Shown here: one piece after another, positions 17,570-49,987 of the stretch
Layout of the letters: each line of letters opens with the position of its first letter
Position numbering within the stretch: position 1 is the stretch's first letter
From: Patescibacteria group bacterium
GTDB taxonomy: Bacteria; Patescibacteriota; Patescibacteriia; Magasanikbacterales; GWA2-37-8
Direction of reading: 5' to 3'
Assembly (NCBI GenBank): GCA_041651015.1
Contig: JBAZKA010000001.1
Span: forward strand, 62,000-125,999
DNA length: 64,000 bases
Made by a program: the position numbers and the translations under genes
The notes under the pieces: model-generated
Seen by the model: the letters and a program-made list of their open reading frames with translations, nothing else
Databases searched by the model: none
Told to the model about the DNA's origin: nothing

Positions 17570-17824
17570 TAAATTGTTCCTCGTTTTTTCTGAATAAAAA
17601 ATTTGTTCAGAAAAAAGAGAGAGTAATTTGTTTATTAGGTCTTTGTAAAGGTCGAGGGATCATGAGATCTCACCTAGATCTCTGTGTAGCGGGGACGCGC
17701 GGTTCCGACTATTTCTTTAGAAATAATCCGGACTGTGCGAAAACCGCTTAGCCCGTTTTCCGTTGACGTTAGTCCGCCAGCCGGTGGACTGATGCGCATC
17801 GGGCTCGGGTATATAATATTTATT

Positions 17825-20800
17825 ATGTACAACGTTATTAAGAAAGCTTTAACCTTCAGCGTTGTTGCCTCTACCATGTTATGGTCTGTTGGTATCGCCG
17901 CTTTGATCCCGTCTGTGGCTCAAGGTGCGACCTGCCCGACTTTAGCTGCTGGCGACATGATCAAAGTGACCGGTAAAGCGGCCATCTATGCTCTTCGCAA
18001 CGATCTGAAAGTTGTGTATTTCCCGTCAGGTGACGAGTTCAAGTCTTGGAGGCCGACCTATGGTGGTTACATCTCCATCACTCAAGATTGCTTTGATTCC
18101 TTGTCGGTTCCGAGCAACTATCCGGCCGCGGTTGGCTTCCACCCGGGTTCTTACCTGGTGAAGAGACCGTCTTCGGACCAGTTGTATGTTGTTGAACCGA
18201 ACAACACCTTAGCTAAAATCACCAGCGCTCTCGCGACCACTTTGTATGGCACTTCTGCCTACTCTGATGGCGTTGGCGCCAAAGTGATGACGATCAGCGA
18301 TGTGTTCTGGCCGCATTATGTTAACCGCGGTACAGATATCACCACTGCCGTTGCCCACCCGGGTATGCTTTTCAAAGTCGACTCCACAACATACTATGTT
18401 GATGAAGACGGCAAACTTCGCGAGGTTACCGATGCCGGTTTCACCGCGAACAACTTCCAAAAGAAATTTGTCCGCACCCTTACGTCTACCGCTATTGCCG
18501 GTTTGACCGCTGGTACTGCTATCAGCGCTGAAATCGCGTCAGTCACGGACAAGACACAGAGCGGTGGTATCACTACGACAACTGCAGCGGGCACTTTGAC
18601 CGTGGCTTTGTCTTCCGCCACTCCGGGCGCTTTAAGCGTTCCGCAGAATGGCACTCGCGTTCCGTTTACCAATGTCGTTTTGACTGCCGGTTCGGATAAC
18701 GCGATCAATGTTGATGCTATCACTGTGAAGAGAACAGGTTTAAGTGATTATTCATATTTTGCCGGAACAGCTGGCAGTGTTTGGGCGGAAAAAGATGGTG
18801 TTCGCGTCACTTCTCAGTCTGATATGAACAGCTCTGATGAAGTGAACCTGACCTTCTCTCCGATCCTCAACATCCCGGCCGGCACTTCCGTCACCTTGGA
18901 AATCGTCGCCTCTTTGAACAGCGCTGCTGGTAACGGCGCCCTCGGCATTGCTTCCGCTTCTGCGGTGTCTGCCGGTGGTGTGACTGTTGCCGGTTCTTTC
19001 CCTGTGACCGGTAACTTGATGTCCTTCACCAGTTATAATGTGGCGACCGCTTCGGTTGATTATGATACCGCCACTCGTACTCCGAAGGTTGGTGACACAG
19101 CTGCTGAAATCTCCTCTTTTGGAGTGACGCAGACTGCCACTTACTCCAAGGATGTCATCTTCAAATCCATCATGTTGAAGAATTCCGGTGTTGAAGATTT
19201 GGCCACCTCTTTGTCCAATGTTTATTTGGAAAAAGCCGGCGCCCAAGTTTCTTCATACGGCACAATCAACGGTCGTTATATTACTTTCGTTTTGAATGGC
19301 GGCGGTCTCTTGATTGAAAAGGGAGACAGCCTTACCTTCAAGGTAAAAGGTGATATCATGGCCAAGGAAAATGCTTCAACCCCGAGCTTTACTTTCTATG
19401 TAAACAAGGTTGAAGACGTCAACATCGTTGAGAAATCAACCGGTTTTGGCGCCGCTGTCACCAAAGACGCGGATACCAACAATGTCGACATCACTTCCGG
19501 CGCGCTTTCTATCACTAAGAAAAGCACCCAGCCGTCTGATGCTGATGTCACCAAGGGTACCAGCGATACTGTTTCATTGCTCGCGAATATCCGCGCCGAT
19601 GAAGCCATCTCTGCCGATGGTATTAAAGTTGGTTGGGAAGGTACTTATGTATCCACTTCCTTCCAAAATGCCAAAGTGTACTTGAACAGTCATTTGCTCG
19701 GTACATTTGATCCGACGGACGAATCAGACACCAACTACGAAATTGAGACTTCTGTCAACTTTAATAAAGGCGACAATGAGCTCAAAATTATGGTTGGCGT
19801 CAAATCCACCGCCACTTCCAGCGCCAACATCAAATTTAAAGTGGTTGGTACTGAGTTTGTGAACGGTGAGTCCCCGGAATACGTTTCCTCCGGCAATTCC
19901 GTTGATTCCGACGATGTGAACGGCAGCCCGGTCGGTGCGATTATCACCGTGGCCGGCGCTGGTTTGACCATCGCGCGCAATGACGGTTATGCCGCGGATC
20001 GCAGCATTGTCCAGGGCACAACTGATGTTTCCCTCGGCAAATTCAATGTCAAAGCCACGAGCGATACAGTGACCCTCACTTCTATCGAAGTCGCGGCCAA
20101 CAGCGGTACCGGCACCAAGGTGTCTGATTCCTCTGTCTTTGACATGAAACTTATGGTTGACGGCGTCCAGGTTGGTACCACTCGAGATTTCAACTCCTCT
20201 GGTGCTTCCTTCTCTGGTCTCAATGTCTCCATTGCCAAGGATGCCATCAAATCAGTGGAAGTTGTTGCTTCCTTTGACACGATGTCCACCGGCTCCATCA
20301 AGACCGTCCTCTCCTTTAACGGCCAAGACAGCAATGGTAAGACGACCGGCTTGACCGGCCTTACTGGAACCACTGTCAACAACGTCGTTATCGCCGCGGG
20401 CGTTTTGACTGCCACTGCCGGTACCGATACTGCAGATAAATCCATCCTCCTCGCCAAGTCCGGTGTTGAATATTCTGTTGCGACCTTCAAATTGACTTCG
20501 CAATATGATTCCTCCAACATCACCGAAATGACTATCGTCAATTCGTCCACTTTGGCTTCGGATGCGAGAATCTCTTCCGTCAAACTTTATGACGGCAGCA
20601 CATTGTTGGGTACAGATTTTGTGATGAGTAACTCCACCACAATTTCATTGGACACCAACAGCCTGATCGTTCCGGCCAATGGCTACAAGAACGTGACCGT
20701 GAAGGTCGTCTTGAACACCATTGATGATGTCACCCAGAGCAGCAGCACCTTCCGCGCCAACTTGACTCAAATCAAGTACAAGGGCTCGGCTGGTTCAGAA

Positions 20801-21289
20801 CTCACCAAGTCTACAGATTTGTATGGCAATGTCATGCAAATCCGCAAGACCAGACCGGTGTTTGCCAATGTTTCTCTTGGCTCATCCGGCCTTGGCGCCG
20901 CTGAAGAAGAAGTGCTCAAGTTCACTGTCACTGCCGATTCCAACGAAGAAGTCGTGATCACCAGCTTGACATTTACTGAAGAGGGCTCTGTCACATCTTC
21001 GGTGTCAAACTTCAAACTGTATGTTGACGATTCGGAAAAGGCCTCGGTCACCAGTGGTGTTCCGACCTTCACCGGATTGACCAATGTGTCAGTTGCGGCT
21101 GGTCAAACCAGAACGTTCTCTGTCCGCGCCAACACCACTGGTGTTGCCGTCGACAAGACGTATGGCATCAGTTTGGAGAAAACCACAGTTGGTAATGTTA
21201 CTTGGGCCGAATACTTTGTCGGCGGTAACAATCCGGGTGATGCTGAGTACCTCAACACCTTCCCGATGTCCAACTCCAAGAAATACTAA
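17825..21289 (+). CDS. Giant secreted/surface protein with many Ig-like beta-sandwich repeats (ORF track starts at 17735; the Met at 17825 precedes the signal peptide)
   Basis: Signal/TM segment ALTFSVVASTMLWSVGIAALIPSVAQGA; over 1100 aa of Thr/Ser/Val/Gly-rich repetitive beta-type sequence. Confidence 0.6.
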   Translation: MYNVIKKALTFSVVASTMLWSVGIAALIPSVAQGATCPTLAAGDMIKVTGKAAIYALRNDLKVVYFPSGDEFKSWRPTYGGYISITQDCFDSLSVPSNYPAAVGFHPGSYLVKRPSSDQLYVVEPNNTLAKITSALATTLYGTSAYSDGVGAKVMTISDVFWPHYVNRGTDITTAVAHPGMLFKVDSTTYYVDEDGKLREVTDAGFTANNFQKKFVRTLTSTAIAGLTAGTAISAEIASVTDKTQSGGITTTTAAGTLTVALSSATPGALSVPQNGTRVPFTNVVLTAGSDNAINVDAITVKRTGLSDYSYFAGTAGSVWAEKDGVRVTSQSDMNSSDEVNLTFSPILNIPAGTSVTLEIVASLNSAAGNGALGIASASAVSAGGVTVAGSFPVTGNLMSFTSYNVATASVDYDTATRTPKVGDTAAEISSFGVTQTATYSKDVIFKSIMLKNSGVEDLATSLSNVYLEKAGAQVSSYGTINGRYITFVLNGGGLLIEKGDSLTFKVKGDIMAKENASTPSFTFYVNKVEDVNIVEKSTGFGAAVTKDADTNNVDITSGALSITKKSTQPSDADVTKGTSDTVSLLANIRADEAISADGIKVGWEGTYVSTSFQNAKVYLNSHLLGTFDPTDESDTNYEIETSVNFNKGDNELKIMVGVKSTATSSANIKFKVVGTEFVNGESPEYVSSGNSVDSDDVNGSPVGAIITVAGAGLTIARNDGYAADRSIVQGTTDVSLGKFNVKATSDTVTLTSIEVAANSGTGTKVSDSSVFDMKLMVDGVQVGTTRDFNSSGASFSGLNVSIAKDAIKSVEVVASFDTMSTGSIKTVLSFNGQDSNGKTTGLTGLTGTTVNNVVIAAGVLTATAGTDTADKSILLAKSGVEYSVATFKLTSQYDSSNITEMTIVNSSTLASDARISSVKLYDGSTLLGTDFVMSNSTTISLDTNSLIVPANGYKNVTVKVVLNTIDDVTQSSSTFRANLTQIKYKGSAGSELTKSTDLYGNVMQIRKTRPVFANVSLGSSGLGAAEEEVLKFTVTADSNEEVVITSLTFTEEGSVTSSVSNFKLYVDDSEKASVTSGVPTFTGLTNVSVAAGQTRTFSVRANTTGVAVDKTYGISLEKTTVGNVTWAEYFVGGNNPGDAEYLNTFPMSNSKKY

Positions 21290-25959: not shown

Positions 25960-26379
25960 ATGATAATCATGCAGATGATCGTGCAACAATTTGTTGAATG
26001 GACAAAAAAGAAAATTCGGCATCATTCGGAAACAGAGAAAAGAATATATTTTCGTGAGAAAGAAATATGGTGGGCCGCGCTTGGTAAAAATATCGGTTGC
26101 GAGGCGGACGGTAAAAATGAATTGTTTGAAAGACCGGTGCTGATTCTAAAAAAATATTCAAAAGAAATGTGCTTTATATTACCACTGACCACACAAATTA
26201 AGAGTGTGAGACCTTGGTATCAGGCATTAGTTTTGATTGATGGAAAAGATAATGCCATAAATATTTCTCAAGGAAGGGTGATAAGTTGCCGACGATTGTT
26301 GCGAAAAATGACCGTATTGAGCGATGGGGATTATGAAATGGTTTTTGATCAATTTATCAGGTCCTTTAATAAAAAATAA
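25960..26379 (+). CDS. MazF/PemK-family toxin-like protein (no adjacent antitoxin ORF of at least 60 aa)
   Basis: EIWWAALGKNIGCEADGKNELFERPVLIL ... FILPLTTQIK matches the MazF pattern (DIYWVDL..GSEQ..RPVLIV ... VAPITSQIK). Confidence 0.55.
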   Translation: MIIMQMIVQQFVEWTKKKIRHHSETEKRIYFREKEIWWAALGKNIGCEADGKNELFERPVLILKKYSKEMCFILPLTTQIKSVRPWYQALVLIDGKDNAINISQGRVISCRRLLRKMTVLSDGDYEMVFDQFIRSFNKK

Positions 26380-28548
<2,169 letters not shown>

Positions 28549-28549
28549 T

Positions 28550-31500
28550 ATGTCGGAGAAATTCAGACCCATGCCGGAGGAGGCAAGGGGGGAAATAAAA
28601 TCGGAAAAACCGAGTGATATTAAGGTTGAAAAAAATGATAATATTGAAAAGGAAAAATTACCGCAAGTGGACAAAGAGACCGGAATTTATACGGATGAGA
28701 ACGGAGAGGAGTGGGCAACGGTAAGTATGGTCGTAAAGTTGTTGGGTTTAAGCGGCGCTGTATTTACCAAAGAACGTCTCTCAGGTGTCCGCTCAATTCG
28801 CGGGCGTGATGGTACGGGTAAGTCCGTCAATCTATTAAATTTAACTGATATAAAAATTTTTTTTGCAGACCATTTGCGGTTACCTCAAGTAGACAAAGAA
28901 ACCGGTATTTATAAGGATGAAAATGGAGAGCAATGGGCGACAGCGCCAGCTGCTGCCGAGCTATTTGGGTTTGGCGCTGACATGTTATCTAAGGAGCGTC
29001 TCGCCTACGTCCGTTCAATACGTGGACGAAGCAGAAGCGGTAATTTCGTTAATTTGTATAATCTCACCGACCTCAGAAATTATTTTGCAGACCATTTGCG
29101 GTTACCTCAAGTAGACAAAGAAACTGGTATTTATACGGATGAGAATGGAGAGCAATGGGTAACGTTAAAAACGGCATCTGACATTATCGGAGTTTATGAG
29201 GTGATGATTACTAAGAAACGTTTGTCCAAAGTCCGTTCAATTCGTGGCCGCGATAGGGTCGGCCGCGGCCCCAATCATGGTCAGCCGAATAACCTATTTA
29301 ATTTATCTGACCTGAAAAAGTTGTTTGCAGACCATTTGCGGTTACCTCAAGTAGACAAAGAAACTGGTATTTATACGGATGAGAATGGAGAACAATGGGT
29401 AGCGTTAAAAACGGCATCTGACATTATCGGAGTTTACCAGGTGATGTTTACTGAGAAACGTTTGTCCAAAGTCCGTTCAATTCGTGGCCGCGATAGGGTC
29501 GGCCGCGGCCCCAATCATGGTCAGCCGAATAACCTATTTAATTTATCTGACCTGAAAAAGTTGTTTGCAGACCATTTGCGGTTACCTCAAGTAGACAAAG
29601 AAACTGGTATTTATACGGATGAGAATGGAGAGCAATGGGCGACAAAAAGTGCCGCGGCAAAGTTTTTTATGTTAGACGTAAAGTTGTTTACTAAAAAACG
29701 TCTTTTTAGTATACGTGCGATACGTGGCCGCGGTGCTGGAATTAGCTCTCCCGAACCCGGTCAACTGGGCAACCTATTTAATTTATCTGACCTGAAAAAG
29801 TTGTTTGCCGATTATCTACATCTGCCACAAGTGGATAAGGAGACCGGTATTTATACGGATGAAAACGGAGAGCGGTGGGTGGCGCGTGCCACAGCAGCAA
29901 AAATGTTTGGTGTAGACGTCGTAACTCTTACCGCACTGCGCTTGTCTCAAGTACGTTCAATTCGCGGCCGCTATAAGGATGGTCGTGCTCCTGAATTTGG
30001 TCAGCCGAATAATTTATTTAATCTCTCCGACCTAGAAAAAGTTTTTGCCGATTACATTACCCAGAAAAAAGGATCCGCTCAAGACCGCGAACTCCGTGAA
30101 TCATTTGATAAAAAAATTAACGAGATCGCGGACGGAGAAACATTTGACGCGCAAAAATTCCGTTCACTGGTAGATGCTTTTGGCGCGGCGCGATGCGTAG
30201 ATATTTTATATCGTCTTTATCCGGAATTTAAAGGCTTGCCGATTGAGCACATCAAGGGAACAATGGCCGATTATCTCGGGGATTTTTTAATTGCCAAAGG
30301 CGATTTTCATCCGAGAAATTGGGGAGACATTGAACCGTTTTTGTCTGATGTAACTTTTCGCGAGTCATTGTACGAAACCGTCAAGGACCATTGTTTACGG
30401 TATTTTTTTATTAAGAAACGCGAAGAACCGCAGAGAGATAATTTGGAAATAATTTATGAGTATTTGGATAATGCCGCGAGCGAGGTCCAAGGAATTGACA
30501 GTAAAGAGTTGGATGACATAATCCAGAACGTGATTGAGTATTATGATGCGGCCATACGTGATTTTGAAAAACCCGAAGGTTTTAAAGACCGTTTGACGAC
30601 TGACCGGGAATTTCCCGACATCAATCAAAAAATAAACATGAAAGAGCTATCCGACAAGAAACGAATTTTGATTGCCGATGAAATGGGTTTGGGCAAAAGT
30701 GCCTCGGTCATTATGGCCAAAGAACAGCTCGGCGTGGCTTGCGCGCTGGTCACGGCGCCGGCCAATGTGATTGAAACCTGGAAAAAATATTTATCCGATG
30801 AAGACGGCGGGTATTATCTGGAGGGCAAAGCGCCAAAAGTTTTGAGCATAGAAAAGTCCGAAGATTTGGACCGAACGGCGAGTGAACAATTTGATTTCAT
30901 ATTGATCTCGCATGAACGTTTGTCTGCCGGCGCGGATATTGTGGAGAAGTTATCCCTGGCCGGATTTGATATGCTCGTCGTGGATGAAGCGCATAAAATG
31001 AAAAATCCCAAGGGCCAGCGGGCCGAGCAGGCCTTGGAACTCGCGGCTTCGCTTGACCCGGAAACGGGATATTTGGCCCTGTTGTCCGGTACGCCGGTGC
31101 CGAATAAAGTCGGTGATATCGCCATAGCTTTGAAAATGCTATATCCGGATAAATTTGCCGATGTTCCGGCTGAAGAATTGTCCGGCCAAATTATCAGCGG
31201 AGATATTTTGGATCTGCGTAGTTTGCTTATGCCACGAATGCAAATGAAAGATTTGCGAGAGAGTATTGACATGCCCGAGCTGACGGAAACCATTGTGCCG
31301 ATTTCGTTGTCGCCGGAAGAGCGGGATATTTATGAAGCGTTGCTGGAAGACGATGAAGTGACAGCCACGGAAAAAATGAAAATTCTGCGTCAATTTTTGC
31401 TTAATCCCGATTTGGTCGTACTTGACCCGAATTTGGAAAGCTCAAAGATTCGCGCTTGTCGCGAGAGATTAAACGAAGCTTTCGCCGAACACGATAAAGT

Positions 31501-33028
31501 TGTGATGTTCGTAAATAATTATTTGGAAGGCGTAGTCCGAGGGGAGACCGATATATTTGATAAATTAAATTTATCGGATGACATTCGGGTGATTAAGATT
31601 CATGGCAATGTGCCGATGACAGAGCGTAAAAAGATTGAACAAGAATTTAACGAGAGCGGTGAAAAAATATTACTGGTCGTAAGCGGGCAGACAGCCGACG
31701 TGGGCGTGGATTTTTCCAACGGCCAAAAAGTAATTTTTTATAACGAGCCGTGGACCGAGTACCAAAGAAGACAAGAATTGGGTCGCGTTTTTCGTCCGGG
31801 AGTAAAAGATAATTTGGATAGCGAGGTTTTGGTTGCCGAAAAAACCATAGAGCAAGGCATCCATGAGTATATCTGGCGCAAATATAAAGCGGTGGAAAAG
31901 CTTTTGCGCGGCGTACCGATTACTGAATTGGAAAAAACACTGTTAAATAAAACCGAACAAGCCGAAGACCCGGACTTGGAAGTTAATCCGGAGCTGGCGC
32001 GTTATTATCTTTCTTGTTGGGACAAGATGATGCAGTATTTCGGTTATGCCAAAGAACTTGGCGAGGCAAAATTTGAAAAGTTTTTGGCTGATTACGGGCG
32101 CGATTATGCCGAAGGCTACCGTGAGCTCGGCAATCGCAGTTATCAGGCGAACGCGAATAGAATTTCCGGCGCGATGATTGAACATGTTGCCGCGCAAAAT
32201 AAAATATCCGCCAAAGATCTTAAAATATTGGACATGGCCTCTGGTCCGGAAATGCTTAGGCGCCACATCGCGGATGATTTACAAAATAGCGTCGTGAGTT
32301 TGGATATCAATCCACATCATCTGCAGAATGCTTCAGGGGATGTTATAAATGCGAGCGCTCGTAAAACCCCGTTTAAAGATAAAAGTTTTGATTATGTAAA
32401 TTATGCGCTCGCTTGGCACTATGGTAAATTTGTTCCGTCACGAAGCGATTTTGAACGCGCGGAAATTTTGGCCGAAGCCAATCGCGTCTTAAAAAACGAC
32501 GGCCGTTTGGTTTTGAGTTTGATTTACTCGGTAAATGTGGCGGATGAAGAAAAATTCATTGCCGCGGTTAATGAGTTGGGGTTTGAGATTGACTCCGAAC
32601 ACAGTGGGGAAGCCGTCAGCGAAAATGTGTTTCGTTCAAAAATTTATACCCTTAAAAAAGTGCGTGATTTGGATAAATCTCCGGCCGAGGCGGCGTCGGA
32701 GATTAGTCCGGATAATTATCCCGGGATGAAAATTCGCACCGACAAGGGTTCGTTAAAAAATTCGCGTAAAATCGTCGGCGGCTTTACCTTGAACGGTCAA
32801 GAAGTCGCGGTTGATCTGAACAGCGCCGACAAAGAAGCGTTGGACGAGGAGCGAAATGTTAGCCAAGAGATGAAGACGTTGAAAGATAAATTTGAAGGGA
32901 TAAAAAATATTCCGCGAGCAGAGATATTGTCCAATAAGTTCGCGCGCATTTTAATCGGGAAAAAGTTTGCTTTGTTCAAAAAACTGGAACGTGGCAGCGG
33001 CGCGGTTGTTATTAAAGATGAAAATTAA
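28550..33028 (+). CDS. Giant multidomain protein: six tandem ~80-aa N-terminal repeats + SNF2-family helicase + C-terminal class I SAM methyltransferase
   Basis: 1492 aa. Repeats LPQVDKETGIYTDENGEQW...VRSIRGRD...NLFNLSDLKKLFADHLR x6. SNF2_N with ADEMGLGKS and DEAH box LVVDEAHKMKN. Helicase-C VVSGQTADVGVDFSNGQKVIFYNEPWTEYQRRQELGRVFRPG. MTase motif I ILDMASGPE, acidic post-I VVSLDIN, LKNDGRLVL. Start overlaps the ligA stop. Confidence 0.75.
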   Translation: MSEKFRPMPEEARGEIKSEKPSDIKVEKNDNIEKEKLPQVDKETGIYTDENGEEWATVSMVVKLLGLSGAVFTKERLSGVRSIRGRDGTGKSVNLLNLTDIKIFFADHLRLPQVDKETGIYKDENGEQWATAPAAAELFGFGADMLSKERLAYVRSIRGRSRSGNFVNLYNLTDLRNYFADHLRLPQVDKETGIYTDENGEQWVTLKTASDIIGVYEVMITKKRLSKVRSIRGRDRVGRGPNHGQPNNLFNLSDLKKLFADHLRLPQVDKETGIYTDENGEQWVALKTASDIIGVYQVMFTEKRLSKVRSIRGRDRVGRGPNHGQPNNLFNLSDLKKLFADHLRLPQVDKETGIYTDENGEQWATKSAAAKFFMLDVKLFTKKRLFSIRAIRGRGAGISSPEPGQLGNLFNLSDLKKLFADYLHLPQVDKETGIYTDENGERWVARATAAKMFGVDVVTLTALRLSQVRSIRGRYKDGRAPEFGQPNNLFNLSDLEKVFADYITQKKGSAQDRELRESFDKKINEIADGETFDAQKFRSLVDAFGAARCVDILYRLYPEFKGLPIEHIKGTMADYLGDFLIAKGDFHPRNWGDIEPFLSDVTFRESLYETVKDHCLRYFFIKKREEPQRDNLEIIYEYLDNAASEVQGIDSKELDDIIQNVIEYYDAAIRDFEKPEGFKDRLTTDREFPDINQKINMKELSDKKRILIADEMGLGKSASVIMAKEQLGVACALVTAPANVIETWKKYLSDEDGGYYLEGKAPKVLSIEKSEDLDRTASEQFDFILISHERLSAGADIVEKLSLAGFDMLVVDEAHKMKNPKGQRAEQALELAASLDPETGYLALLSGTPVPNKVGDIAIALKMLYPDKFADVPAEELSGQIISGDILDLRSLLMPRMQMKDLRESIDMPELTETIVPISLSPEERDIYEALLEDDEVTATEKMKILRQFLLNPDLVVLDPNLESSKIRACRERLNEAFAEHDKVVMFVNNYLEGVVRGETDIFDKLNLSDDIRVIKIHGNVPMTERKKIEQEFNESGEKILLVVSGQTADVGVDFSNGQKVIFYNEPWTEYQRRQELGRVFRPGVKDNLDSEVLVAEKTIEQGIHEYIWRKYKAVEKLLRGVPITELEKTLLNKTEQAEDPDLEVNPELARYYLSCWDKMMQYFGYAKELGEAKFEKFLADYGRDYAEGYRELGNRSYQANANRISGAMIEHVAAQNKISAKDLKILDMASGPEMLRRHIADDLQNSVVSLDINPHHLQNASGDVINASARKTPFKDKSFDYVNYALAWHYGKFVPSRSDFERAEILAEANRVLKNDGRLVLSLIYSVNVADEEKFIAAVNELGFEIDSEHSGEAVSENVFRSKIYTLKKVRDLDKSPAEAASEISPDNYPGMKIRTDKGSLKNSRKIVGGFTLNGQEVAVDLNSADKEALDEERNVSQEMKTLKDKFEGIKNIPRAEILSNKFARILIGKKFALFKKLERGSGAVVIKDEN
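28658..30050 (+). repeat. Tandem ~240-bp in-frame DNA repeats (6 units) within the 5-prime part of the giant gene
   Basis: Units 29127-29340 and 29367-29580 are about 97 percent identical at the DNA level; the motif TTTGCAGACCATTTGCGGTTACCTCAAGTAGACAAAGAAAC recurs every ~240 bp. Confidence 0.85.
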
Positions 33029-33077
33029 TTTTAATTCCGCTATGCACAAGGCATGGCGGTTTTTTATTTTTTAAATT

Positions 33078-33165
33078 TTATGGTATAATTATTTCATCAA
33101 TTACATCAACTTAATTATTTCGTCGCATTCATCATTTTCATCAACTTCATCATTTTCATCATTCA
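33078..33165 (+). promoter_or_regulatory. Extended -10 element (TGGTATAAT at 33081-33089) followed by four 9-bp CATCAnnTT repeats immediately upstream of the ppsA start
   Basis: TTCATCA at 33128, 33137, 33146, 33155 with 9-bp periodicity, plus one copy at 33094. Confidence 0.5.
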
Positions 33166-38039: not shown

Positions 38040-38164
38040 ATAATTTTTTTGTTTCCTTTTCATCATTATATAGCGATGAGGTGGAATTGGGCGAGTATAC
38101 ACTAAAAAACGGATGTTGTCAACTGATTGCAAGCAAATATGCGAAGTGTTATAATATTGTCCGT

Positions 38165-39100
38165 ATGCTTAAAGTCATAGTGAAAAAATCCCCAATAGCG
38201 GGCAAGGGTATCTTTGCCGCGCAGAATTTCAAAATAGGTGAAGTGGTTTTTGTTTTACACGGACCGATAATCAAATATCCAACTGTGCCAGACTGGCGCA
38301 ATGGTCAAAATTGGCTTAATATTGCGAAGTTTACTTGGAAAATTCCCGACCATGATAATGTTTGGAATTATATTAATCATTCTTGCCGCCCAAATTCTTT
38401 ATTAACCGGCGGTACCAAAGTAGTCGCCATACGTCCCATTAGTAATGGGGACGAAGTCGTTATTGACTATTCTTGCACGGAAGCGGTCGCCGCTTGGAAG
38501 ATGAAATGCCATTGCCGACAAAAAAATTGTCGCGGCGTGATACGAAGTATCCAGTATTTGCCAAAAAATTTATTTGAGAAATATAAAAATTACATCCCGC
38601 TCTTTTTAAAGAAAGAATATTTGCAACATAAATTTTATTCCGGCCGCGCAAAGAGTGGCAGTCCGGCGATTTTCGCCAAGCAGATGATAATAAAAAATGA
38701 GACCATCTTTATAATCAAGGGACCGGTAATCAAATACACACGTCCGCCCCGTTATCAGATAGGCTATCATTGGCTGGGAATATCCAAAAATATTTGGCTG
38801 ATACCGTTTAGGAACAATCCTTGGTGGCAACTGCGTCACTCTTGCGATCCGAATGTTGGTTTAAAGGATAAAACGAAAGTTGTCGCCATGCGAGATATCA
38901 GAGCGGATGAAGAATTGGTGGTTGATGATTCTATTACGGAAGCCGATATAAAGTGGCACTTTGCCTGTCATTGCGGCTCAAAAAAATGTCGGAAGACGGT
39001 AAAATCAATACAGTTTTTGCCTCAAGCACTATTCAAAAAATACAAGCCATATATTCCTGATTTTTTCCGGCAGGAATATCTAAACAGTCGCAAAATCTGA
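38165..39100 (+). CDS. Tandem double SET-domain protein (putative protein-lysine methyltransferase); ORF track starts at 38081, Met at 38165 preferred
   Basis: Two complete SET modules: INHSCRPNS ... DY ... CHCRQKNCRG and LRHSCDPNV ... CHCGSKKCRKTV, each with GxG start (AGKGIFA) and post-SET Cys cluster. Confidence 0.7.
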   Translation: MLKVIVKKSPIAGKGIFAAQNFKIGEVVFVLHGPIIKYPTVPDWRNGQNWLNIAKFTWKIPDHDNVWNYINHSCRPNSLLTGGTKVVAIRPISNGDEVVIDYSCTEAVAAWKMKCHCRQKNCRGVIRSIQYLPKNLFEKYKNYIPLFLKKEYLQHKFYSGRAKSGSPAIFAKQMIIKNETIFIIKGPVIKYTRPPRYQIGYHWLGISKNIWLIPFRNNPWWQLRHSCDPNVGLKDKTKVVAMRDIRADEELVVDDSITEADIKWHFACHCGSKKCRKTVKSIQFLPQALFKKYKPYIPDFFRQEYLNSRKI

Positions 39101-42258: not shown

Positions 42259-42287
42259 TTTACTTTTAACTTGCCGCGAAGCGGCGG

Positions 42288-42681
42288 TGGAGATGGCGAG
42301 AGTCGAACTCGCGTCCAGATGGCCACGCCACAGCCGTCTACATGCTTAGTTCTCTTATTTTTAACCAAACTGTATTCAGAGAACGAAAATTCGTTTGGCG
42401 TGCCGGCTTTGCCTTTCAATTACTTCACCTCCGGCTCGGTTGGTAATCTACGCCTGATGATTTGCGCCGCGTTTAGTTACCAGGTGTGGCTAAGGCGACG
42501 GAAGCGGCAATTAAGCCGCGACAGGAGCAAAACTCATCGCCGGGCTAAAAGCTCGAGCAATGGATGTTTTGACTTTTGAAAATAAGTTGGCACTTATTAT
42601 TTGGTCCATGTATTTACGAGGGTTGGACCGACCTCGGCATGCGAACTATAACGCCGGTCTCTGTCAAAGCCCGGCATCCCC
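42288..42681 (-). ncRNA. ssrA: tmRNA (ssrA)
   Basis: Minus strand starts GGGGATGCCGGGCTTTGACAGAGACCGG... and ends ...GGACGCGAGTTCGACTCTCGCCATCTCCA (tRNA-like T-arm and acceptor). A candidate tag ORF beginning at nt 91 reads GCC AAC ... GTC GCG GCT TAA (ends ...FAPVAA-stop). Lies 2 nt downstream of the smpB stop. Confidence 0.85.
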
Positions 42682-45664: not shown

Positions 45665-48600
45665 TTGTCCAATATGCCTAAAAAAATTGAACGGGAATTT
45701 CTGAGCGATGATTTGGAAACTTTGGCCATGACTGATCATGAAGAATTTGGTAAACGTGTCTATTCTATTAGCGATAAATTAGCGGACAAAATGTCTGCCG
45801 CCAGAAAAACTCGCGATCAATGGGCAACTGACGCGCCCAAACAAAAGAAAAGACGCAAAAATTTTTATGAAAAAATGGATGGCGGAGATTTAGTCATGGT
45901 GATTATTAAGGCTAATGACGCGGTTCGGGATTTGATAAGCCTGCAATACTCAAGCAGTTCCAAGCGAGACGCGAATCGTGAGGATGAAATAATCAAGGAA
46001 GCGGTCAAGGCCGCGGTAAATTTGGAAAATGCTCTTCACGAGGCCGAAGAACTTGATTTTGAAAAAAAGATTCCGGCGGGTGAACAATTTAACGAACATG
46101 GTTTCAAGGAAAAATTGGCCGACATGGAAATTGAAGTCACGCGCGGTTCGGCCCGATTGCAAAAATACAAAAATATTCACGCGCAATTCAAGAATACGCC
46201 ATCGTTTGCCCTGTATAGCAATGAATTTGTGCGTCAATTGAATGATTTTGATCACGCGATTAATCAGGCCGAGTCATTGGCCGCTGAATTAAAAACAGAC
46301 ATTGATGACATGAATGATTTGTTGAGCGATGACAACGCGAGTGAAAAAGAACTAAAAGTGAGAATCGCCGATTTAGAAAAGAAGCAAAAAAATATTGCCG
46401 ACGTCGTGGCTAAAATTGAGACGGACACGCCGGAGATGAACAAAGAATACGAACAAAAGTTAAAATTTTACAATCGAATTTTCGGCGCCGCGCGCCAATT
46501 GAATGAATTTAAGAAGGGACCGGATTTTGATCTTTTGCCCAATGGCAGAAAGATTGTCTTTGAATTGTTGCATAGAGCGCAAAAAATCCAAGACCAACAA
46601 CTAACCGATGAAGAAATTCAAGATTTTGAAAACGAAGTGGCTAAGAAAGTTTTTAACGCAGTGGATAAAATAAAGTCCGAACAACAAGCCGTCCGCGAAG
46701 CCGAGGCGGCCAAAACCGAAGCAGATAAAGTGGAAGCGGAAAATCAAAAGGAGATAGAGAAATTATCTACCGAATATAGATTACCCATACGAATTGAAAG
46801 CGACCAGATTAAAAAAATGTCCGAGGAGCTGAAACCGTTGATAAAATTTGCCGAATATGCCGGTTCAACGGCCGGTGCGGATTTGGATATTGATCCGAGT
46901 AAAATCGCGCTGGTAAAGTCGGTGGAACGAAATATTTGGCAGGCCGGTTTAAACATTATGGATTTGTCCGAGGCGTTCTCCGGACAAAGCAAAATGTCGC
47001 TCGCTGAAATTCGCAAACGCATTGCCGATTACGACGCGGAATTCAAAGCGGCGAAAAATAATTTTGACGAAGCCATGGAAATAATTGACGGTGTCCGGAC
47101 ACGAATGGTTCATAATTTACGAGCCGAATTTTCTGCCGTGCGTTTGTCCAAAGAGCATATTACCGACCGTGAAGAAGCCATCTTGCGCGGCTTGGAAGCG
47201 ATGTTGAGAAATACCAAGGATTTAACTTGGCGGGATATTGAAGACGTAAAATTTATCCTGAAGAAGAACGTCTTGGCGCCGATGGGCGAATCCATAAAAA
47301 AATCTTTGGAAGCAGGGGTTGAGACTCAACCAGATTTGGTTAAACCGAAAGCGGAAAAATCCGCGGAAGAAATGTTGACCGGCGCTTTTCCGAAAGACGA
47401 ATCAACACCGAGCAAACCGGAAGAAATAAAATTAACCAGAAAAGAAATTATCGCCGAAATAGGCGAGATGTACAAAAATGAAGGTGTGATCAATCTGAAT
47501 TCTCAAGAAATTTTGGATGTTTTACAACCCAAGGATATTGAGGCCATGATTGAACATTTGCGCGCTGATGCCATGGCCAAGAGCGATGGGAATTCCGGCG
47601 AGTTCAAAAGAATTTTGCGCGAATCTTTGAACAAAGATTTACTCAAATCATTGAGTGATGAAACTCGCGACAAAATCGGCGAAGCCGTGATTGAGCAAAC
47701 ATACGCTTTGCTCAAAGGCGCGGTGGACGCTGAATCGCGCGCGGAAATTTTGCGTTTGCAAACTTCCAAAGCGGAAAAGTTCGCACGCGTGGGAGCGGTG
47801 GGCGCCAGCATCGCCGCGCGGATTGGTCTTGGCGTCGGTTTGGGCGTTGTTTCGGCGCCGGTGGTGGCGGCCACGGGCGGAGCGGCCTCGGTGGTGGTGG
47901 GCGCGGGCATGGTGGGAATGAACAAAGCCATTGATCGTTTGTCGGAGACGGCGCCGGTCAAAAAAATTAAATCTTTTTTTGGAAATTTATTAAAGCGCAA
48001 CAGGCCGGCGATTGATGAAGCCAGAGTAATTGAGAGCACGGCCAAAGCGACCATTACGCCGGAAATGTTGGCCAATGTTTTATCCGGACAATTACGCGAG
48101 AATACCAGCGAGGAATTGCGTTATCGCATAGAAACTTTTTCACAATTAAAGAAATCCGCCGAGCATACCTTATCTCCGGACGCGATAGGAAAATTTGCGT
48201 CATCTTTGGATGATATGTCCAAAGATTTTTACCAAAATAGTTTTGACTATTTGACGTTAAAATACGCCGACCAGAATCTGTCGCCGGAAACAATCTCGGT
48301 GGTGGCCCGATTGATGACGGCTGAAATAAACACCAATCAGAAAAATGAGATGAACACCGCCGAGGCGGCCGAAAAGAAACCAACCGCGGTGAAAGTAATG
48401 GAAAAAATTACCAAAATCAAATCGCACTCGGTCGGCGCGTTTTTCTTTGGCGGCTGCATGTCACTCGCCTTGGCCGAGGGCCCGGCCGTTGCTCGCGTGG
48501 TCGGCGGAGCCTTGTCCGGCGCCGGTCTGGGTTTGATGATTGAAGGACGAATGCGCGTTTCGGCCGATAAAAAAATAATTGATAAAAACAAGGAACTTTT

Positions 48601-49987
48601 GCCGGCTTGGGAAAACATCTCGCGTAAAAGCGGCGGCGCAATCATGAGTAAAGATTGGACAAAATACCAAAACGACATCGCTTTGATGCGTAAAAATTTG
48701 AACGAAGGTAAATTTGACACAGATCCGCTAACCAAAATTCGCGTGGAAAATTTATCATCGCGCTTTGAGCGCATGATGATTGAACGCGGCAAAGTGGGTA
48801 AAAAATTGGTGGCGGAAATTGCCGCGGATTTGAACAAGCAGTTAAGTGATTACAACACTGTCGCCAAAAAACACGAAAAAAGTTTGATGAAAATTTTTGG
48901 CATCAAAGACCGCCGTACGGTTTTCGTTCGGGCCGGCGCGGTGGTAGGCGCAGTTTTTGGATATTTTATGTCCCAAGGCGGTTGGCATAAAATTATGTCG
49001 TTGTTTAATAACGAACCGCCGGTCGGGCAAACGATTGCTTTCAAAGATCAGGATTTACCCGCTTTGCATCGCACTCCGGGCGTATCAATAACCAAAGAGG
49101 AGCAGTTTTCTATGAGGGAAGTGCCCGCTGAGCCGGTTGCCCGTCATCACGTCACGCATCAAACGGCTCGCCGCGCGGAAGAAATTTTGTCTGCACCAAC
49201 GGCCGTTCAGACTGCATCGCCGATTCCGGAAAATCCGTATGGCAATAATGGCGGTAATGATCTGATTGAAGAGGAATTACAAAAAGTAAAAATTTCTCAC
49301 GAGGTTGACTCGGATATTTTTGAACATTTTGATCGTTCGGAGCATCCGCGTTTAAGCGATGAAAATTACCAACGCATGTTGAAAATTTATTCCGAATCCG
49401 GTTCGGAAAAAGCGCGAGATTATTTGGATTCCATTGAACACGGCCGCGGACACGCTGATAGATTGGATTCAATTAAACACAAATTTGGATCACGCATGGA
49501 CGAAGCGGTGAACAAGCAAGCCGAACAAATTAAAAATCAGATGAATGAGTCGCCGAGGAGTGCGACAAATCGTGTTATGTCCGAATTGCCGGTTGAGCGC
49601 GGTACCGAATTTATTATTAATGAGGCTGATGCAGACGCAGATGCCGGAGTCGAGGATGGAGGTGTGGTGGAAACTGATGCGGGCGCTGCTGACGCGCAAC
49701 GCGAGGCCTCGGTAAAAAAAGCCTTGGCGCACGCGCGTGAACAATCCGCTCAAGCGCACTCCATTGCCGAAGATCGTTTTCAAAGAGGGGTAGACCAACT
49801 TGGGTCAAATGCGCATCAGGCTTATGATTGGTTGAATGAGCGGGTGAATGATGCAAATTTAGCCCCGGATCAATCTGTTAAAATAAAGGACTTGATGGAT
49901 CAATTTAAACAGAGTGTCAGAAGTGGCAAAATTTCGCCATCGTTGATGAACGAAATAAATCGCGAGATGACGGCACACGACATATAA
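45665..49987 (+). CDS. Giant (1440 aa) coiled-coil protein with internal Gly/Ala-rich hydrophobic segments (hypothetical)
   Basis: Long K/E-rich heptad-like sequence; hydrophobic glycine-zipper-like stretches (VGAVGASIAARIGLGVGLGVVSAPVVAATGGAASVVVGAGMVG; GGALSGAGLGLMIEG). Confidence 0.5.
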   Translation: MSNMPKKIEREFLSDDLETLAMTDHEEFGKRVYSISDKLADKMSAARKTRDQWATDAPKQKKRRKNFYEKMDGGDLVMVIIKANDAVRDLISLQYSSSSKRDANREDEIIKEAVKAAVNLENALHEAEELDFEKKIPAGEQFNEHGFKEKLADMEIEVTRGSARLQKYKNIHAQFKNTPSFALYSNEFVRQLNDFDHAINQAESLAAELKTDIDDMNDLLSDDNASEKELKVRIADLEKKQKNIADVVAKIETDTPEMNKEYEQKLKFYNRIFGAARQLNEFKKGPDFDLLPNGRKIVFELLHRAQKIQDQQLTDEEIQDFENEVAKKVFNAVDKIKSEQQAVREAEAAKTEADKVEAENQKEIEKLSTEYRLPIRIESDQIKKMSEELKPLIKFAEYAGSTAGADLDIDPSKIALVKSVERNIWQAGLNIMDLSEAFSGQSKMSLAEIRKRIADYDAEFKAAKNNFDEAMEIIDGVRTRMVHNLRAEFSAVRLSKEHITDREEAILRGLEAMLRNTKDLTWRDIEDVKFILKKNVLAPMGESIKKSLEAGVETQPDLVKPKAEKSAEEMLTGAFPKDESTPSKPEEIKLTRKEIIAEIGEMYKNEGVINLNSQEILDVLQPKDIEAMIEHLRADAMAKSDGNSGEFKRILRESLNKDLLKSLSDETRDKIGEAVIEQTYALLKGAVDAESRAEILRLQTSKAEKFARVGAVGASIAARIGLGVGLGVVSAPVVAATGGAASVVVGAGMVGMNKAIDRLSETAPVKKIKSFFGNLLKRNRPAIDEARVIESTAKATITPEMLANVLSGQLRENTSEELRYRIETFSQLKKSAEHTLSPDAIGKFASSLDDMSKDFYQNSFDYLTLKYADQNLSPETISVVARLMTAEINTNQKNEMNTAEAAEKKPTAVKVMEKITKIKSHSVGAFFFGGCMSLALAEGPAVARVVGGALSGAGLGLMIEGRMRVSADKKIIDKNKELLPAWENISRKSGGAIMSKDWTKYQNDIALMRKNLNEGKFDTDPLTKIRVENLSSRFERMMIERGKVGKKLVAEIAADLNKQLSDYNTVAKKHEKSLMKIFGIKDRRTVFVRAGAVVGAVFGYFMSQGGWHKIMSLFNNEPPVGQTIAFKDQDLPALHRTPGVSITKEEQFSMREVPAEPVARHHVTHQTARRAEEILSAPTAVQTASPIPENPYGNNGGNDLIEEELQKVKISHEVDSDIFEHFDRSEHPRLSDENYQRMLKIYSESGSEKARDYLDSIEHGRGHADRLDSIKHKFGSRMDEAVNKQAEQIKNQMNESPRSATNRVMSELPVERGTEFIINEADADADAGVEDGGVVETDAGAADAQREASVKKALAHAREQSAQAHSIAEDRFQRGVDQLGSNAHQAYDWLNERVNDANLAPDQSVKIKDLMDQFKQSVRSGKISPSLMNEINREMTAHDI

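Follow-up and report, generated by a model that had tools for sequence, protein, structure and literature searches.

Within the window, a 64,000-nt genome stretch of an uncultured, very small Patescibacteria group bacterium, a single open reading frame encodes a giant protein consisting of a leader, a six-unit repeat array, a linker, an SNF2 ATPase, a methyltransferase, and a C-terminal tail (Table 1). An identical protein, encoded on a 286.5-kb contig, is on record in NCBI as "MAG: SNF2-related protein [Patescibacteria group bacterium]". Because its start codon lies only 1 nt downstream of the stop codon of ligA (...AAATAA T ATGTCG), the two genes probably form one co-transcribed operon, which is closed by an intrinsic terminator. 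The ligA junction is kept in a relative (L001, 60% identity), and in both cases, the operon is chromosomal, located amid pilus, ppsA, and typA genes, with no recombinase, type IV secretion system (T4SS) gene, or defense partner detected near the giant gene. An initial sequence-only reading of this locus had correctly described the extent of the gene, its repeats-SNF2-methyltransferase architecture, its position relative to ligA, and an orphan MazF-like toxin upstream. Indeed, a PemK/MazF-like ORF (E = 1.5e-7) is located upstream of ligA, with no preceding antitoxin ORF; it is missing from the syntenic relative and is an insertion unrelated to the giant gene.

Table 1. Features of the ligA-giant gene locus (positions in the window; residues of the giant protein)
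Feature	Position	Strand	Residues	Basis or remarks
ligA (NAD-dependent DNA ligase)	26380..28548	+		Pfam DNA_ligase_aden, E = 3e-87; OB, HHH, and BRCT domains
Giant gene	28550..33028	+	1492 aa	ORF list
Array of six tandem winged-helix units	28661..30064	+	38-505
Repeat unit 1	28661-28882	+	38-111	74 aa
Repeat unit 2	28883-29104	+	112-185	74 aa
Repeat unit 3	29105-29344	+	186-265	80 aa
Repeat unit 4	29345-29584	+	266-345	80 aa
Repeat unit 5	29585-29824	+	346-425	80 aa
Repeat unit 6	29825-30064	+	426-505	80 aa
Units 3 and 4, sole recent duplication	29105..29584	+		97.5% DNA identity; pairwise comparison, Tandem Repeats Finder
Family-specific linker domain	30065..30619	+	506-690	conserved throughout the core family (alignment)
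SNF2 ATPase, both RecA-like lobes	30620..31939	+	691-1130	Pfam, SsoRad54, and phrog_62 matches
Walker A, GLGKS	30686-30709	+	713
DEAH	30983-30994	+	812
Motif VI, QELGRVFRPG	31772-31801	+	1075
Helical bridge and Rrp8/nucleomethylin-like class I SAM methyltransferase	31940..32704	+	1131-1385
Invariant RSYQANxxR	32135-32161	+
Methyltransferase motif I, ILDMASGPE	32225-32251	+	1226
Basic C-terminal tail	32705..33025	+	1386-1492	pI 9.5; kept in all members
Intrinsic terminator	33037..33072	+		hairpin CCGCTATGCACAAGGCATGGCGG and T-run; 9 pairs, 6 G-C

The six units of the array, each opening with PQVDKETGIY, are predicted to adopt an excisionase/MerR-type winged-helix fold (pLDDT 90.5). No significant sequence match to Pfam or PDB families was found for the repeat unit, and HTH-family Pfam traces are present in the arrays of relatives. 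The array is basic (pI 9.4), and its units combine a conserved scaffold (hairpin, wing, and last helix) with hypervariable recognition helices, the amino acid identity between units being 32% in the helix-turn-helix segment versus 94% in the flanking hairpin. The units had been taken to be about 97% identical at the DNA level, and the array, accordingly, to be young. Both statements hold for the duplication of units 3 and 4 but not for the rest of the array, as the other 14 unit pairs share 59–70% DNA identity and 53–68% protein identity. Tandem Repeats Finder reports 97% only for a 2.3-copy stretch (29084-29639); over 3.3 copies, the value falls to 84%. Units 2–5 are near-identical over about 85 nt at their junctions. 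Four of the 6 nucleotide differences between units 3 and 4 are non-synonymous, and all four (unit residues 20, 32, 35, and 37) fall within the helix-turn-helix segment. The six copies, in agreement with the sequence-only reading, represent the assembled number in a metagenome-assembled genome, where short-read assembly can merge or multiply near-identical 240-bp units.

This repeat defines a family missing from Pfam, with 732 cluster representatives. Xis, TorI, AlpA, the terminase small-subunit HTH, and the MerR N-terminal domain are relatives in kind, but the window unit has an extra N-terminal beta-hairpin (PxVDxxTGxYxDxxGxxW), and whereas those domains are single or form oligomers of separate chains, arrays of the window type always contain 2–14 copies per chain. 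Among the members of the family sharing the linker-SNF2-methyltransferase-tail core, the N-terminal arrays are interchangeable, with at least five repeat types in 0–14 copies, so the repeat number is not fixed among relatives; in the closest relative, the array units show no 1:1 orthology to those of the window protein, whereas the core is 64% identical. At least 22 proteins (3–14 units each) carry array and core in one chain, and two loci (L088 and L216) encode them as separate genes of one cluster; these sequence comparisons suggest that array and core function together. In a divergent sister subfamily, the array proteins are encoded separately from the core, and in four other proteins (P0090, P0129, P0137, and P0161), the same repeat is located C-terminal to a different SF2 helicase. 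We infer that targeting resides in the fast-evolving array and catalysis in the conserved core.

The linker, for which no match was found among PDB sequences and Pfam, ends in an invariant RxFPDxNQxIN stretch that runs into the ATPase core. The latter is a complete SNF2 ATPase, as anticipated, with matches to Pfam SNF2-rel_dom (aa 703-943, E = 1.2e-18) and Helicase_C (aa 973-1084, E = 1.8e-13) and an SGTP motif at residue 846, in addition to the DEAH box and the other motifs in Table 1. The closest solved structure is the Sulfolobus SsoRad54 core (1z63, E = 7e-19, both lobes aligned), whereas the strongest profile match is the phage family phrog_62, 'DNA helicase' (E = 1e-51). Judging by its sequence, the motor is of the SsoRad54 type and retains every catalytic motif of an SNF2 ATPase. 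SsoRad54 is a double-stranded-DNA translocase core, and double-stranded DNA is the track of SNF2 motors in general. A RapA/HepA-type housekeeping remodeler was considered and rejected, because RapA scores 36 bits, far short of the equivalog cutoff of 576, and the similarity is confined to lobe 1. The N- and C-terminal additions of RapA and of SsoRad54/SSO1653-type ATPases are unrelated to those of the window protein.

The predicted C-terminal class I methyltransferase matches Pfam Methyltransf_11 (aa 1227-1322, E = 2.5e-10), its SAM-binding residues are conserved, and among relatives it is invariably joined to the motor. By three methods, its closest solved relative is nucleomethylin/Rrp8 (PF05148, PDB 2zfu, a 25S/28S rRNA m1A methyltransferase), followed by Bud23, which fits the earlier view that this is not a classical N6A/C5 DNA methyltransferase. 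Domain and motif searches of the window protein likewise detected neither a nuclease, as claimed, nor a classical DNA-methylase motif, (D/N/S)PP(Y/F) being absent. The window protein scores 25.4 bits against Methyltransf_8 (PF05148), slightly below the cutoff of 27, whereas one homologue (P0005) exceeds this cutoff with 34.4 bits. With Rrp8, a eukaryotic nucleolar enzyme, the window methyltransferase shares motif I and the post-I acidic residue, but it is bacterial and joined to a DNA motor; furthermore, it contains a family-specific insert after strand 4 (HYxxFxPSxxxxER), the upstream invariant RSYQANxxR, and the C-terminal tail. The tail, to which no known family could be assigned, carries the conserved motifs LKxSR, LNxxDxxVLxEE, IPxxEI, and YxLFKKLxxGxGAVxxK, and is modelled as a beta-rich segment packed against the methyltransferase (pLDDT 85–95).

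This is an uncharacterised family whose core, in the genomes searched, is restricted to Patescibacteria, and its members probably carry out energy-dependent methylation of something on DNA. Our tentative preference, held with slightly less than even confidence, is for a single-chain 'binder-motor-writer', that is, an ATP-dependent DNA-tracking methyltransferase acting on the cell's own or incoming DNA. The basic array would anchor the protein to double-stranded DNA and might recognise a long composite site, and the SNF2 motor would use ATP to translocate along or distort the duplex, thereby presenting the substrate to the methyltransferase. This substrate would most probably be an otherwise inaccessible nucleobase and, less probably, a DNA-bound protein or nascent RNA, and the role could be marking or maintenance of own or incoming DNA during replication, repair, or DNA uptake. 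We favor such a role over classical restriction-type defense because the gene lies on the chromosome and is probably transcribed together with ligA; the closest relative retains the ligA-coupled position, and other family members adjoin MgsA/RarA or stand near LexA-domain genes. Conversely, the core family is present in at least 18 of 185,579 representative genomes, a patchy distribution that a housekeeping function would not usually show. This counts against the reading, as does the lack of a conserved neighbor gene across the 22 loci examined.

The same logic has been demonstrated for Dnmt5 and proposed for DarB-type dyads, and by analogy, it might apply here. In Dnmt5, the only experimentally dissected case of same-chain SNF2 gating of methylation, methylation of DNA depends on ATP hydrolysis by the SNF2 domain (bioRxiv 10.1101/2020.01.05.895227). 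By its description, the Cryptococcus enzyme is the best 'works like' model for the window protein, but it is eukaryotic, belongs to the C5 DNMT class, and has other accessory domains, so homology is expected in the SNF2 core alone. The polyvalent-protein dyad combines LPD36, an EcoKI/TaqI-like adenine methylase, and a SWI2/SNF2 ATPase, and such SNF2-methylase dyads are frequent in phages and conjugative elements (PMC5512222). Like DarB and the dyad, the window protein is a giant single chain with an SNF2-type ATPase and a SAM methyltransferase and without a nuclease, and motor-dependent DNA modification is plausible for both. Homology to DarB, however, was rejected, and the label 'DarB-like' survives as an analogy only. 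In P1 DarB, an N-terminal adenine methylase of the N6_Mtase (PF02384)/Eco57I type precedes the helicase, the reverse of the order in the window protein with its C-terminal Rrp8-like domain; BLASTP yields E = 0.002, across helicase motifs II-III only; and DarB lacks a winged-helix array and is virion- or plasmid-borne, whereas the window gene is chromosomal.

A possible, although distinctly less probable, alternative is a conflict-system protein of mobile DNA, functionally resembling DarB or the polyvalent dyad, either an anti-restriction/establishment factor or a defense factor. Such a protein would ride transferred or incoming DNA and modify it for protection or, if foreign, disable it, and an arms race would account for the hypervariable arrays, in keeping with their quick turnover and interchangeable repeat types. 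Type IV secretion and conjugative genes neighbor some members and the sister subfamily, which points to a mobile-element or conflict role and counts against the preferred reading. Specifically, one sister gene (L218) resides in a T4SS conjugative-element-like island encoding VirB4-like, TraC-like, TrbC pilin, Replic_Relax, and TrwB-like coupling proteins and a serine recombinase; the L088 gene adjoins Replic_Relax and a resolvase; and a fused member (P0003) is located two genes downstream of a TrwB-like coupling protein and is followed by GIY-YIG and SocA_Panacea genes. The patchy distribution, the phrog_62 match, and the abundance of SNF2-methylase dyads in phages and conjugative elements also fit, as do partial PADLOC matches to ZorD (E = 2.5e-20), HmaA (1.2e-19), DpdE (9e-16), and DrmD (9e-13). 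These PADLOC matches, however, like those in NCBIfam (40–65 bits versus cutoffs of 500–1200), span the SNF2 core only and are far below curated cutoffs, and the likeness to DISARM DrmD+DrmMI, Zorya ZorD, Dpd DpdE, BREX BrxH, Hma HmaA, and Type ISP is limited to the motor: Mrr/PLD nuclease, DUF1998, N6A methylase, target-recognition domain, and partner genes are all absent from the window protein and its neighborhood. The search for phage and plasmid homologues suggested by the sequence-only reading found no full-length relatives in 50,697 phage records, 72,556 plasmids, and IMG/VR. The conserved chromosomal ligA operon, the absence of a nuclease or other effector, a methylase that is not of the EcoKI/TaqI adenine type, and a domain order opposite to that of DarB argue against this possibility as well.

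An RNA-directed enzyme appears unlikely. The Rrp8/Bud23-like domain would methylate rRNA (or tRNA) co-transcriptionally, as a bacterial analogue of chromatin-associated nucleomethylin, with the motor acting RapA-like on DNA or RNA polymerase and the array tethering the protein near rRNA or other genes. Both nearest solved relatives are rRNA base methylases (PMC6085284), one homologue passes the Rrp8-family threshold, and a sister-subfamily gene (L216) lies just upstream of rpoB-rpoC, with one small conserved gene between. However, identity to 2zfu is only 18–20%, the RapA signature is absent, and the motor is of a kind that tracks double-stranded DNA. Furthermore, rRNA modification enzymes are normally conserved lineage-wide, unlike this patchy family, and hypervariable, copy-number-variable arrays fit poorly with a single conserved rRNA target.

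Least probable is a protein methyltransferase coupled to a remodeler: the motor would evict or shift a protein bound to DNA, such as a nucleoid protein, a polymerase, or a DNA-binding protein associated with pili or uptake, and the class I domain would methylate that protein. No protein methyltransferase family ranks near the top of the matches with specific similarity, and no partner gene is conserved at the 22 loci. In favor, the basic tail, packed on the methyltransferase in the model, might serve as a lid that binds protein or nucleic acid. A gene 5 kb from the giant gene in the window codes for a SET-domain protein, so that protein methylation, which this alternative invokes, does exist in this organism.

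The giant gene encodes a protein identical to one deposited as 'MAG: SNF2-related protein [Patescibacteria group bacterium]' from a 286.5-kb contig. The sequence-only reading had described this 1492-aa ORF, starting 1 nt after the ligA stop, as a SNF2 ATPase joined to a methyltransferase and devoid of a nuclease, and all of this holds. The ORF and the 1-nt gap are present, no nuclease motif was found in the protein by regular-expression and Pfam searches, and Pfam matched SNF2-rel_dom (aa 703-943, E 1.2e-18, 67.6 bits, cutoff 24.9), Helicase_C (aa 973-1084, E 1.8e-13, 51.1 bits, cutoff 23.5) and Methyltransf_11 (aa 1227-1322, E 2.5e-10, 41.3 bits, cutoff 21.2). With both RecA-like lobes above the Pfam gathering thresholds, the motor belongs to the SNF2 family (PF00176 plus PF00271); ATPase motifs I (GLGKS, 713), II (DEAH, 812), III (SGTP, 846) and VI (QELGRVFRPG, 1075) are intact, and these positions are invariant throughout the family of homologs. 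An N-terminal repeat array is followed by a core that consists of a linker (aa 506-690), the motor (691-1130), the methyltransferase (1131-1385) and a tail (1386-1492). The 185-aa linker is conserved in every family member and found no relatives in PDB or Pfam.

The best solved relative of the motor is the SNF2 core of Sulfolobus SsoRad54 (1z63; E 7e-19, both lobes), followed by eukaryotic remodellers, with RapA far down the ranking (E ~2e-4, no passing stretch). The possibility that the protein is a RapA/HepA-type housekeeping remodeller, raised in the sequence-only reading, was rejected, as there is no equivalog-level match: the protein scores 36 bits against the NF003426 cutoff of 576, over lobe 1 only (aa 703-872). 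Its strongest profile match is a phage helicase family, phrog_62 (E 1e-51), which likewise covers the motor only.

The C-terminal domain is a class I SAM methyltransferase, with motif I (ILDMASGPE at 1226) conforming to ILDxASGPE with invariant D98, and with SLDIN carrying invariant D122. In a 22-sequence alignment of this region, RSYQANxxR, motif I in the form ILDxASGPEML, the post-I acidic residue in SLDIN and the tail are invariant or nearly so, and an AlphaFold model (pLDDT 90.2, pTM 0.88) has a seven-stranded fold with the tail packed on the Rossmann domain. Three methods agree on 2zfu (Rrp8/nucleomethylin) as the closest solved relative; among them, Foldseek ranked it first (E 1.4e-10), with Bud23 entries next, and the methyltransferase family profile had it as the sole good match among PDB sequences (E 9.3e-7). 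Rrp8 produces m1A in large-subunit rRNA (PMC6085284). The Rrp8 family Methyltransf_8 (PF05148, cutoff 27) scored 25.4 bits on the window protein, 34.4 on the homolog P0005 and 19.4 on the homolog P0004, with precomputed matches in several family members. The domain is best described as a putative nucleic-acid base methylase with a Rrp8/Bud23-like fold. The earlier judgement that it is not a classical N6A or C5 DNA methyltransferase was right: regular expressions for motif IV ([DNS]PP[YFWH]) and PCQ found neither in the window protein, the one ENV (aa 1358) lacks a C5 context, the Pfam scan matched no DNA-methylase family, and the nearest relative is Rrp8-like. A search with aa 1131-1492 returned family members only, most of them end-of-contig fragments, and every match that extended far enough N-terminally to include part of the motor contained Helicase_C; thus, the methyltransferase domain was not found alone.

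Six tandem units, each opening with PQVDKETGIY and measuring 74, 74, 80, 80, 80 and 80 aa, fill aa 38-505. The ~97% DNA identity previously ascribed to the repeats applies to units 3 and 4 (97.5%) but not to the other 14 pairs, which are 59-70% identical. This young pair has four non-synonymous differences, all inside the helix-turn-helix segment, and ~85 nt at the unit junctions are nearly identical across units 2-5. Conservation inside the array is a mosaic (see the table), and the units cannot be paired one to one with those of the closest relative, P0002 (helix-turn-helix segments 12-44% identical), while the linker-to-tail core is 64% identical between the two proteins, so the array is the fast-evolving part. 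The unit scaffold is either homogenised or under constraint, with the presumed recognition helices diversifying. A basic pI (9.4) sets the array apart from the acidic linker, motor and methyltransferase (pI 4.7-5.2).

The AlphaFold2 model of the unit, built from a 77-unit alignment, is confident (pLDDT 90.5, pTM 0.79) and consists of a beta-hairpin, two helices, a beta-hairpin wing and a C-terminal helix. This topology, a helix-turn-helix followed by a wing, and the fold match to solved members point to an excisionase/MerR-type winged helix; the fold relatives are terminase small-subunit HTH domains and MerR N-terminal domains and, further down, DdrC and RacA. At the sequence level, no described HTH family (e.g. 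HTH_17, MerR) was significant in the Pfam scan of the window protein, the best match of the unit profile in the PDB had E = 0.19, and the arrays of relatives gave only cumulative, sub-threshold matches to HTH_36 and similar families. TCL1_MTCP1 and DUF903 assignments on the repeats were dismissed as summed sub-threshold Pfam matches to the YxDxxGxxW hairpin, with no single stretch passing. Among 1.84 billion cluster representatives, the unit profile matched 732 proteins at E<=1e-3 (158 at E<=1e-30), and every one of the best 150 of these 732 carries 2-14 copies. The unit therefore represents an undescribed repeat-forming winged-helix family, one that is not in Pfam. An HMM seeded with the window's six units and iterated on homologues (type A) counted 4-13 units in fused relatives and 9-12 in repeat-only proteins; to compare copy number within the species, the metagenome collection was searched with the protein and for exact occurrences of a 38-nt junction pattern, and neither search retrieved a close relative.

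The full-length relatives are 1328-1967 aa long and 33-60% identical, with linker, motor, methyltransferase, tail and 4-13 type-A units, and 22 proteins among the best repeat-profile matches also match parts of the core, most of them full-length fusions, with 3-14 units. When one genome from each of 185,579 species was scanned with the core profile, the matches listed included at least 18 loci that cover residues 1-984, all of them in Patescibacteria-type metagenome-assembled genomes (Saccharibacteria/Saccharimonadales, Moraniibacteriota, Paceibacterota and some bins otherwise labelled), the remaining listed matches being generic SNF2 motors of 23-26% identity. The arrays are interchangeable: in the 18 listed loci the core is also preceded by other types, including B, C, D and E. 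Type B, a ~72-aa repeat (PEGWxT...HPEWF...YHPDL) with many sub-threshold HTH-family matches, is related to type A (profile-profile probability 83%, E 8.6e-6), and C, D and E make up at least three further repeat types without Pfam assignment. Three loci (L007, L016 and L019) have the core without any array, and P0007, a 1996-aa homolog from a Logan contig, has yet another N-terminus. This protein has W at family-invariant G positions (LSWTP, DIWSWP, KIGWY), a substitution pattern that points to recoding of UGA as Gly (genetic code 25, as in Gracilibacteria/Absconditabacteria), which the gene caller translated wrongly; the family therefore reaches code-25 CPR lineages. Type-A arrays are not confined to fusions with the core: repeat-only proteins carry them, and in P0090, P0129, P0137 and P0161 4-8 copies lie C-terminal to a different SF2 helicase (ResIII/DEAD/Helicase_C, SWI2_SNF2 PF18766), so that the array is a portable module for helicase-type motors.

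The gene for one repeat-only protein (P0010, 11 units) lies four genes upstream of that for a 1281-aa protein, which aligns colinearly, at 27% identity, with the motor-methyltransferase core of the window protein. This 1281-aa protein belongs to a divergent, array-less sister subfamily of at least 40 clusters (1109-1453 aa, most ~1270-1320; one named from Candidatus Daviesbacteria). Four sister loci share a conserved cluster of several proteins with a ~63-aa repeat (GYW..E.I..EA..F....G.LS...L...GR.DL..AI...YPGG), the motor-methyltransferase and, downstream of it, a conserved 138-178-aa protein, which has no similarity to the tail of the window protein; in two of them, L088 and L216, a type-A-unit protein is also in the cluster. 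Fusion of array and core in one subfamily and operon linkage in its sister constitute classical evidence that the two work together. The settings of these clusters vary: L218 lies inside an island resembling a T4SS conjugative element (VirB4-like, TraC-like, TrbC pilin, Replic_Relax, coupling protein, serine recombinase), Replic_Relax and a resolvase are found near L088, L216 is located just upstream of rpoB-rpoC with one small conserved gene between and metK near, and L217 is chromosomal.

In the window, the gene order is pilM, response regulator, pilin, prepilin peptidase, PemK/MazF-like toxin, ligA, giant gene, ppsA, unknown ORF, typA and SET-domain protein. The locus of the closest relative, L001 (60% identity, 4 units), has its genes in this order too and keeps the 1-nt ligA junction, but the MazF gene is missing. 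This absence from an otherwise syntenic locus marks the toxin as an insertion specific to one lineage, with no relation to the giant gene; no antitoxin ORF was found in the 98-nt gap between the prepilin peptidase gene and the toxin ORF. At the 5' end of the ligA ORF as listed, ~40 codons do not look like coding sequence, and the true start is probably the ATG ahead of MLSKPEAEK, near 26500. A short spacer with a 9/18-bp tandem repeat separates the terminator of the giant gene from the ppsA start. Within the giant gene, just upstream of the motor region, a sigma-70-like site, a consensus match only, could in principle yield an array-less product.

Distant members are not syntenic with the window, and all-against-all clustering of six neighbours on each side of 22 loci identified no universal partner gene, only small recurrent groups. 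LigA precedes the window gene and that of L001, which count as one lineage; MgsA/RarA is at -1 in L013, with the upstream gene of L004 in the same cluster; and a protein with a LexA DNA-binding domain near L009 clusters with genes of L020 and L023. A small, convergent methylpurine-glycosylase (MPG)-like gene directly follows three distantly related members (L003, L015 and L022), whose cores are 44-47% identical and which have no other neighbour in common. The resemblance is weak (26.2 bits, cutoff 27), the catalytic E-x-EAY stretch is missing, and the gene had no match among PDB sequences. The gene for the homolog P0003 lies two genes downstream of one for a TrwB/VirD4-like coupling protein.

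The pairing of SNF2 motors with methylases is a known theme, represented by DarB-type dyads, Dnmt5 and restriction enzymes, but to our knowledge all described cases use a bona fide DNA methylase, whereas in the present family the motor is joined to swappable arrays of small DNA-binding-type modules and to a Rrp8/Bud23-like domain of a kind otherwise known from eukaryotic ribosome biogenesis. We found no paper describing this architecture, and a survey of CPR methyltransferases mentions SNF2 linkage in general terms only. The label 'DarB-like' does not hold in the sense of homology: a direct BLASTP comparison with P1 DarB gave a best segment of E 0.002 and 24% identity, confined to motifs II-III, and a Pfam scan placed N6_Mtase (aa 145-290) of DarB ahead of SNF2 (aa 849 onward) and Helicase_C, whereas the window protein has no N6_Mtase match and carries a methylase of another class at its C-terminus, in the reverse domain order. 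The polyvalent-protein 'methylase-helicase dyad' consists of LPD36, an EcoKI/TaqI-type adenine methylase and SNF2, in that order (PMC5512222); no LPD family matched the window protein in Pfam at E up to 1, although that library may lack an LPD36 model. Known defence systems (DISARM, Zorya, Dpd, BREX, Hma) were rejected as well: the NCBIfam/PADLOC models pilus_reg_Snf2, SCO1167, DpdE, DrmD, ZorD, HmaA and BrxH match the motor only, with scores 10- to 20-fold below curated cutoffs (in NCBIfam, DrmD 41.6 bits against 610, DpdE 51.2 against 500), and the gene is surrounded by pilus genes, ligA, ppsA and typA rather than by partner genes of such systems. Despite the pilus genes nearby, the top NCBIfam match, 'pilus expression-regulating Snf2', is uninformative (64.7 bits against 1100, motor only).

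In Dnmt5, the best functional analogy for the window protein, methylation by the fused methylase requires ATP hydrolysis by SNF2 (bioRxiv 10.1101/2020.01.05.895227). The analysis establishes the anatomy and folds of the protein, its intact catalytic motifs, the confinement of the family to Patescibacteria among the matches listed, the modular, fast-changing arrays and the genetic linkage between array and core. From these we infer DNA binding by the array, movement of the motor along DNA and dependence of methylation on the motor, and we tentatively favour, at slightly less than even confidence, a 'DNA-tracking ATP-dependent methyltransferase' with a chromosomal, DNA-metabolism-linked role. 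A role in mobile-DNA conflict shares this molecular mechanism and differs in the biological role. Some other members and the sister subfamily do adjoin T4SS genes, but the window and L001 have a chromosomal context (pilus-ligA-gene-typA/ppsA), in contrast to the phage or conjugative-element setting of the DarB dyad; moreover, protein searches of phage records and plasmids and scans of IMG/VR with two profiles recovered generic SNF2 motors and no full-length relative of the core, leaving a phage or plasmid origin without support. We consider such a conflict role possible but rather unlikely. Co-transcriptional RNA methylation appears improbable, and protein methylation slightly more so; an enzyme acting on either substrate, RNA or protein, would be the first such motor-coupled one from bacteria.

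The most unconventional reading, to which we assign little credence, views the family as a programmable ATP-driven nucleic-acid 'writer' that would combine modular DNA reading with non-canonical DNA base methylation. Through the hypervariable recognition helices of each unit, the tandem array would recognise an extended DNA address module by module, much as TALE proteins do. Opening or distortion of the duplex by the SNF2 motor would follow, and the Rrp8/Bud23-like domain would set a methyl group on the Watson-Crick face or a ring nitrogen (m1A, m3C or m7G type) of the DNA, to serve as a new epigenetic mark or else, as a weapon, to block replication of incoming or foreign DNA. We know of such marks in DNA only as damage. 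The weak MPG-like gene beside three members and the T4SS and pilus contexts would fit a 'writer' linked to DNA transfer.

The family is real and uncharacterised, its new components being the repeat-forming winged-helix module and the Rrp8-like methylase on a DNA motor. If its substrate is DNA, the family would define a new enzymatic way of modifying DNA in the Patescibacteria, a large, uncultured group that depends on imported DNA and nucleotides. The repeat unit, as a new domain family of 732 cluster representatives with a conserved scaffold and hypervariable helices, is a candidate modular DNA reader, and the array alone and the linker-to-tail core are concrete constructs for in vitro work.

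Coordinates of features in the window, in the repeat unit and at the loci of relatives
Feature	Position	Strand	Remarks
Giant gene	28550-33028	+	Single ORF, 1492 aa
PemK/MazF-like toxin ORF	25960-26379	+	E 1.5e-7
Strong hairpin	26380-26404		10 pairs, 7 G-C; exactly at the mazF stop and the mechanically called ligA start
Sigma-70-like site	30495-30522	+	TTGACA, 16-nt spacer, TG-extended CATAAT; 11/12 matches
Intrinsic terminator	33037-33072		Good; closes the giant gene
9/18-bp tandem repeat	33093-33163		TTCATCATT, ~4 copies
SET-domain protein	38081-39100	+	339 aa; Pfam SET E 5.9e-18
Giant ORF	45665-49987	+	1440 aa
Giant ORF	17735-21289	+	1184 aa, Thr/Ser-rich
High-GC patch	51000-56400		0.55-0.60 vs 0.44
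High-GC patch	57776-60490		0.55-0.60 vs 0.44
tmRNA	42286-42681	-	
N-terminal hairpin of unit	unit aa 1-18		94% protein, 88% DNA identity within the window's array
Helix-turn-helix of unit	unit aa 19-42		32% protein, 49% DNA identity within the window's array
Wing and last helix of unit			62% protein, 66% DNA identity within the window's array
MPG-like gene	L003:15090-15524	-	+1
MPG-like gene	L015:10954-11481	-	+1
MPG-like gene	L022:10992-11441	-	+1
Sister-subfamily locus	L218:1-20100		
Sister-subfamily locus	L088:2389-21809		
Sister-subfamily locus	L216:6382-14486		
Sister-subfamily locus	L217:5512-14235		

Several other features of the window were recorded. The SET-domain protein, whose gene follows the giant one at a distance of 5 kb, is putatively a protein lysine methyltransferase, a type of enzyme uncommon in bacteria. 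Two further giant ORFs have no Pfam family. The high-GC patches hold genes for predicted secreted proteins with Ala-rich repeats or long acidic (Asp-Thr/Asp-Ser)n ones and with Cys-rich modules, none having a Pfam assignment above threshold. The tag peptide predicted for the tmRNA, ANLFSKVKTSIARAFSPAMSFAPVAA, is unusually long at 26 residues.
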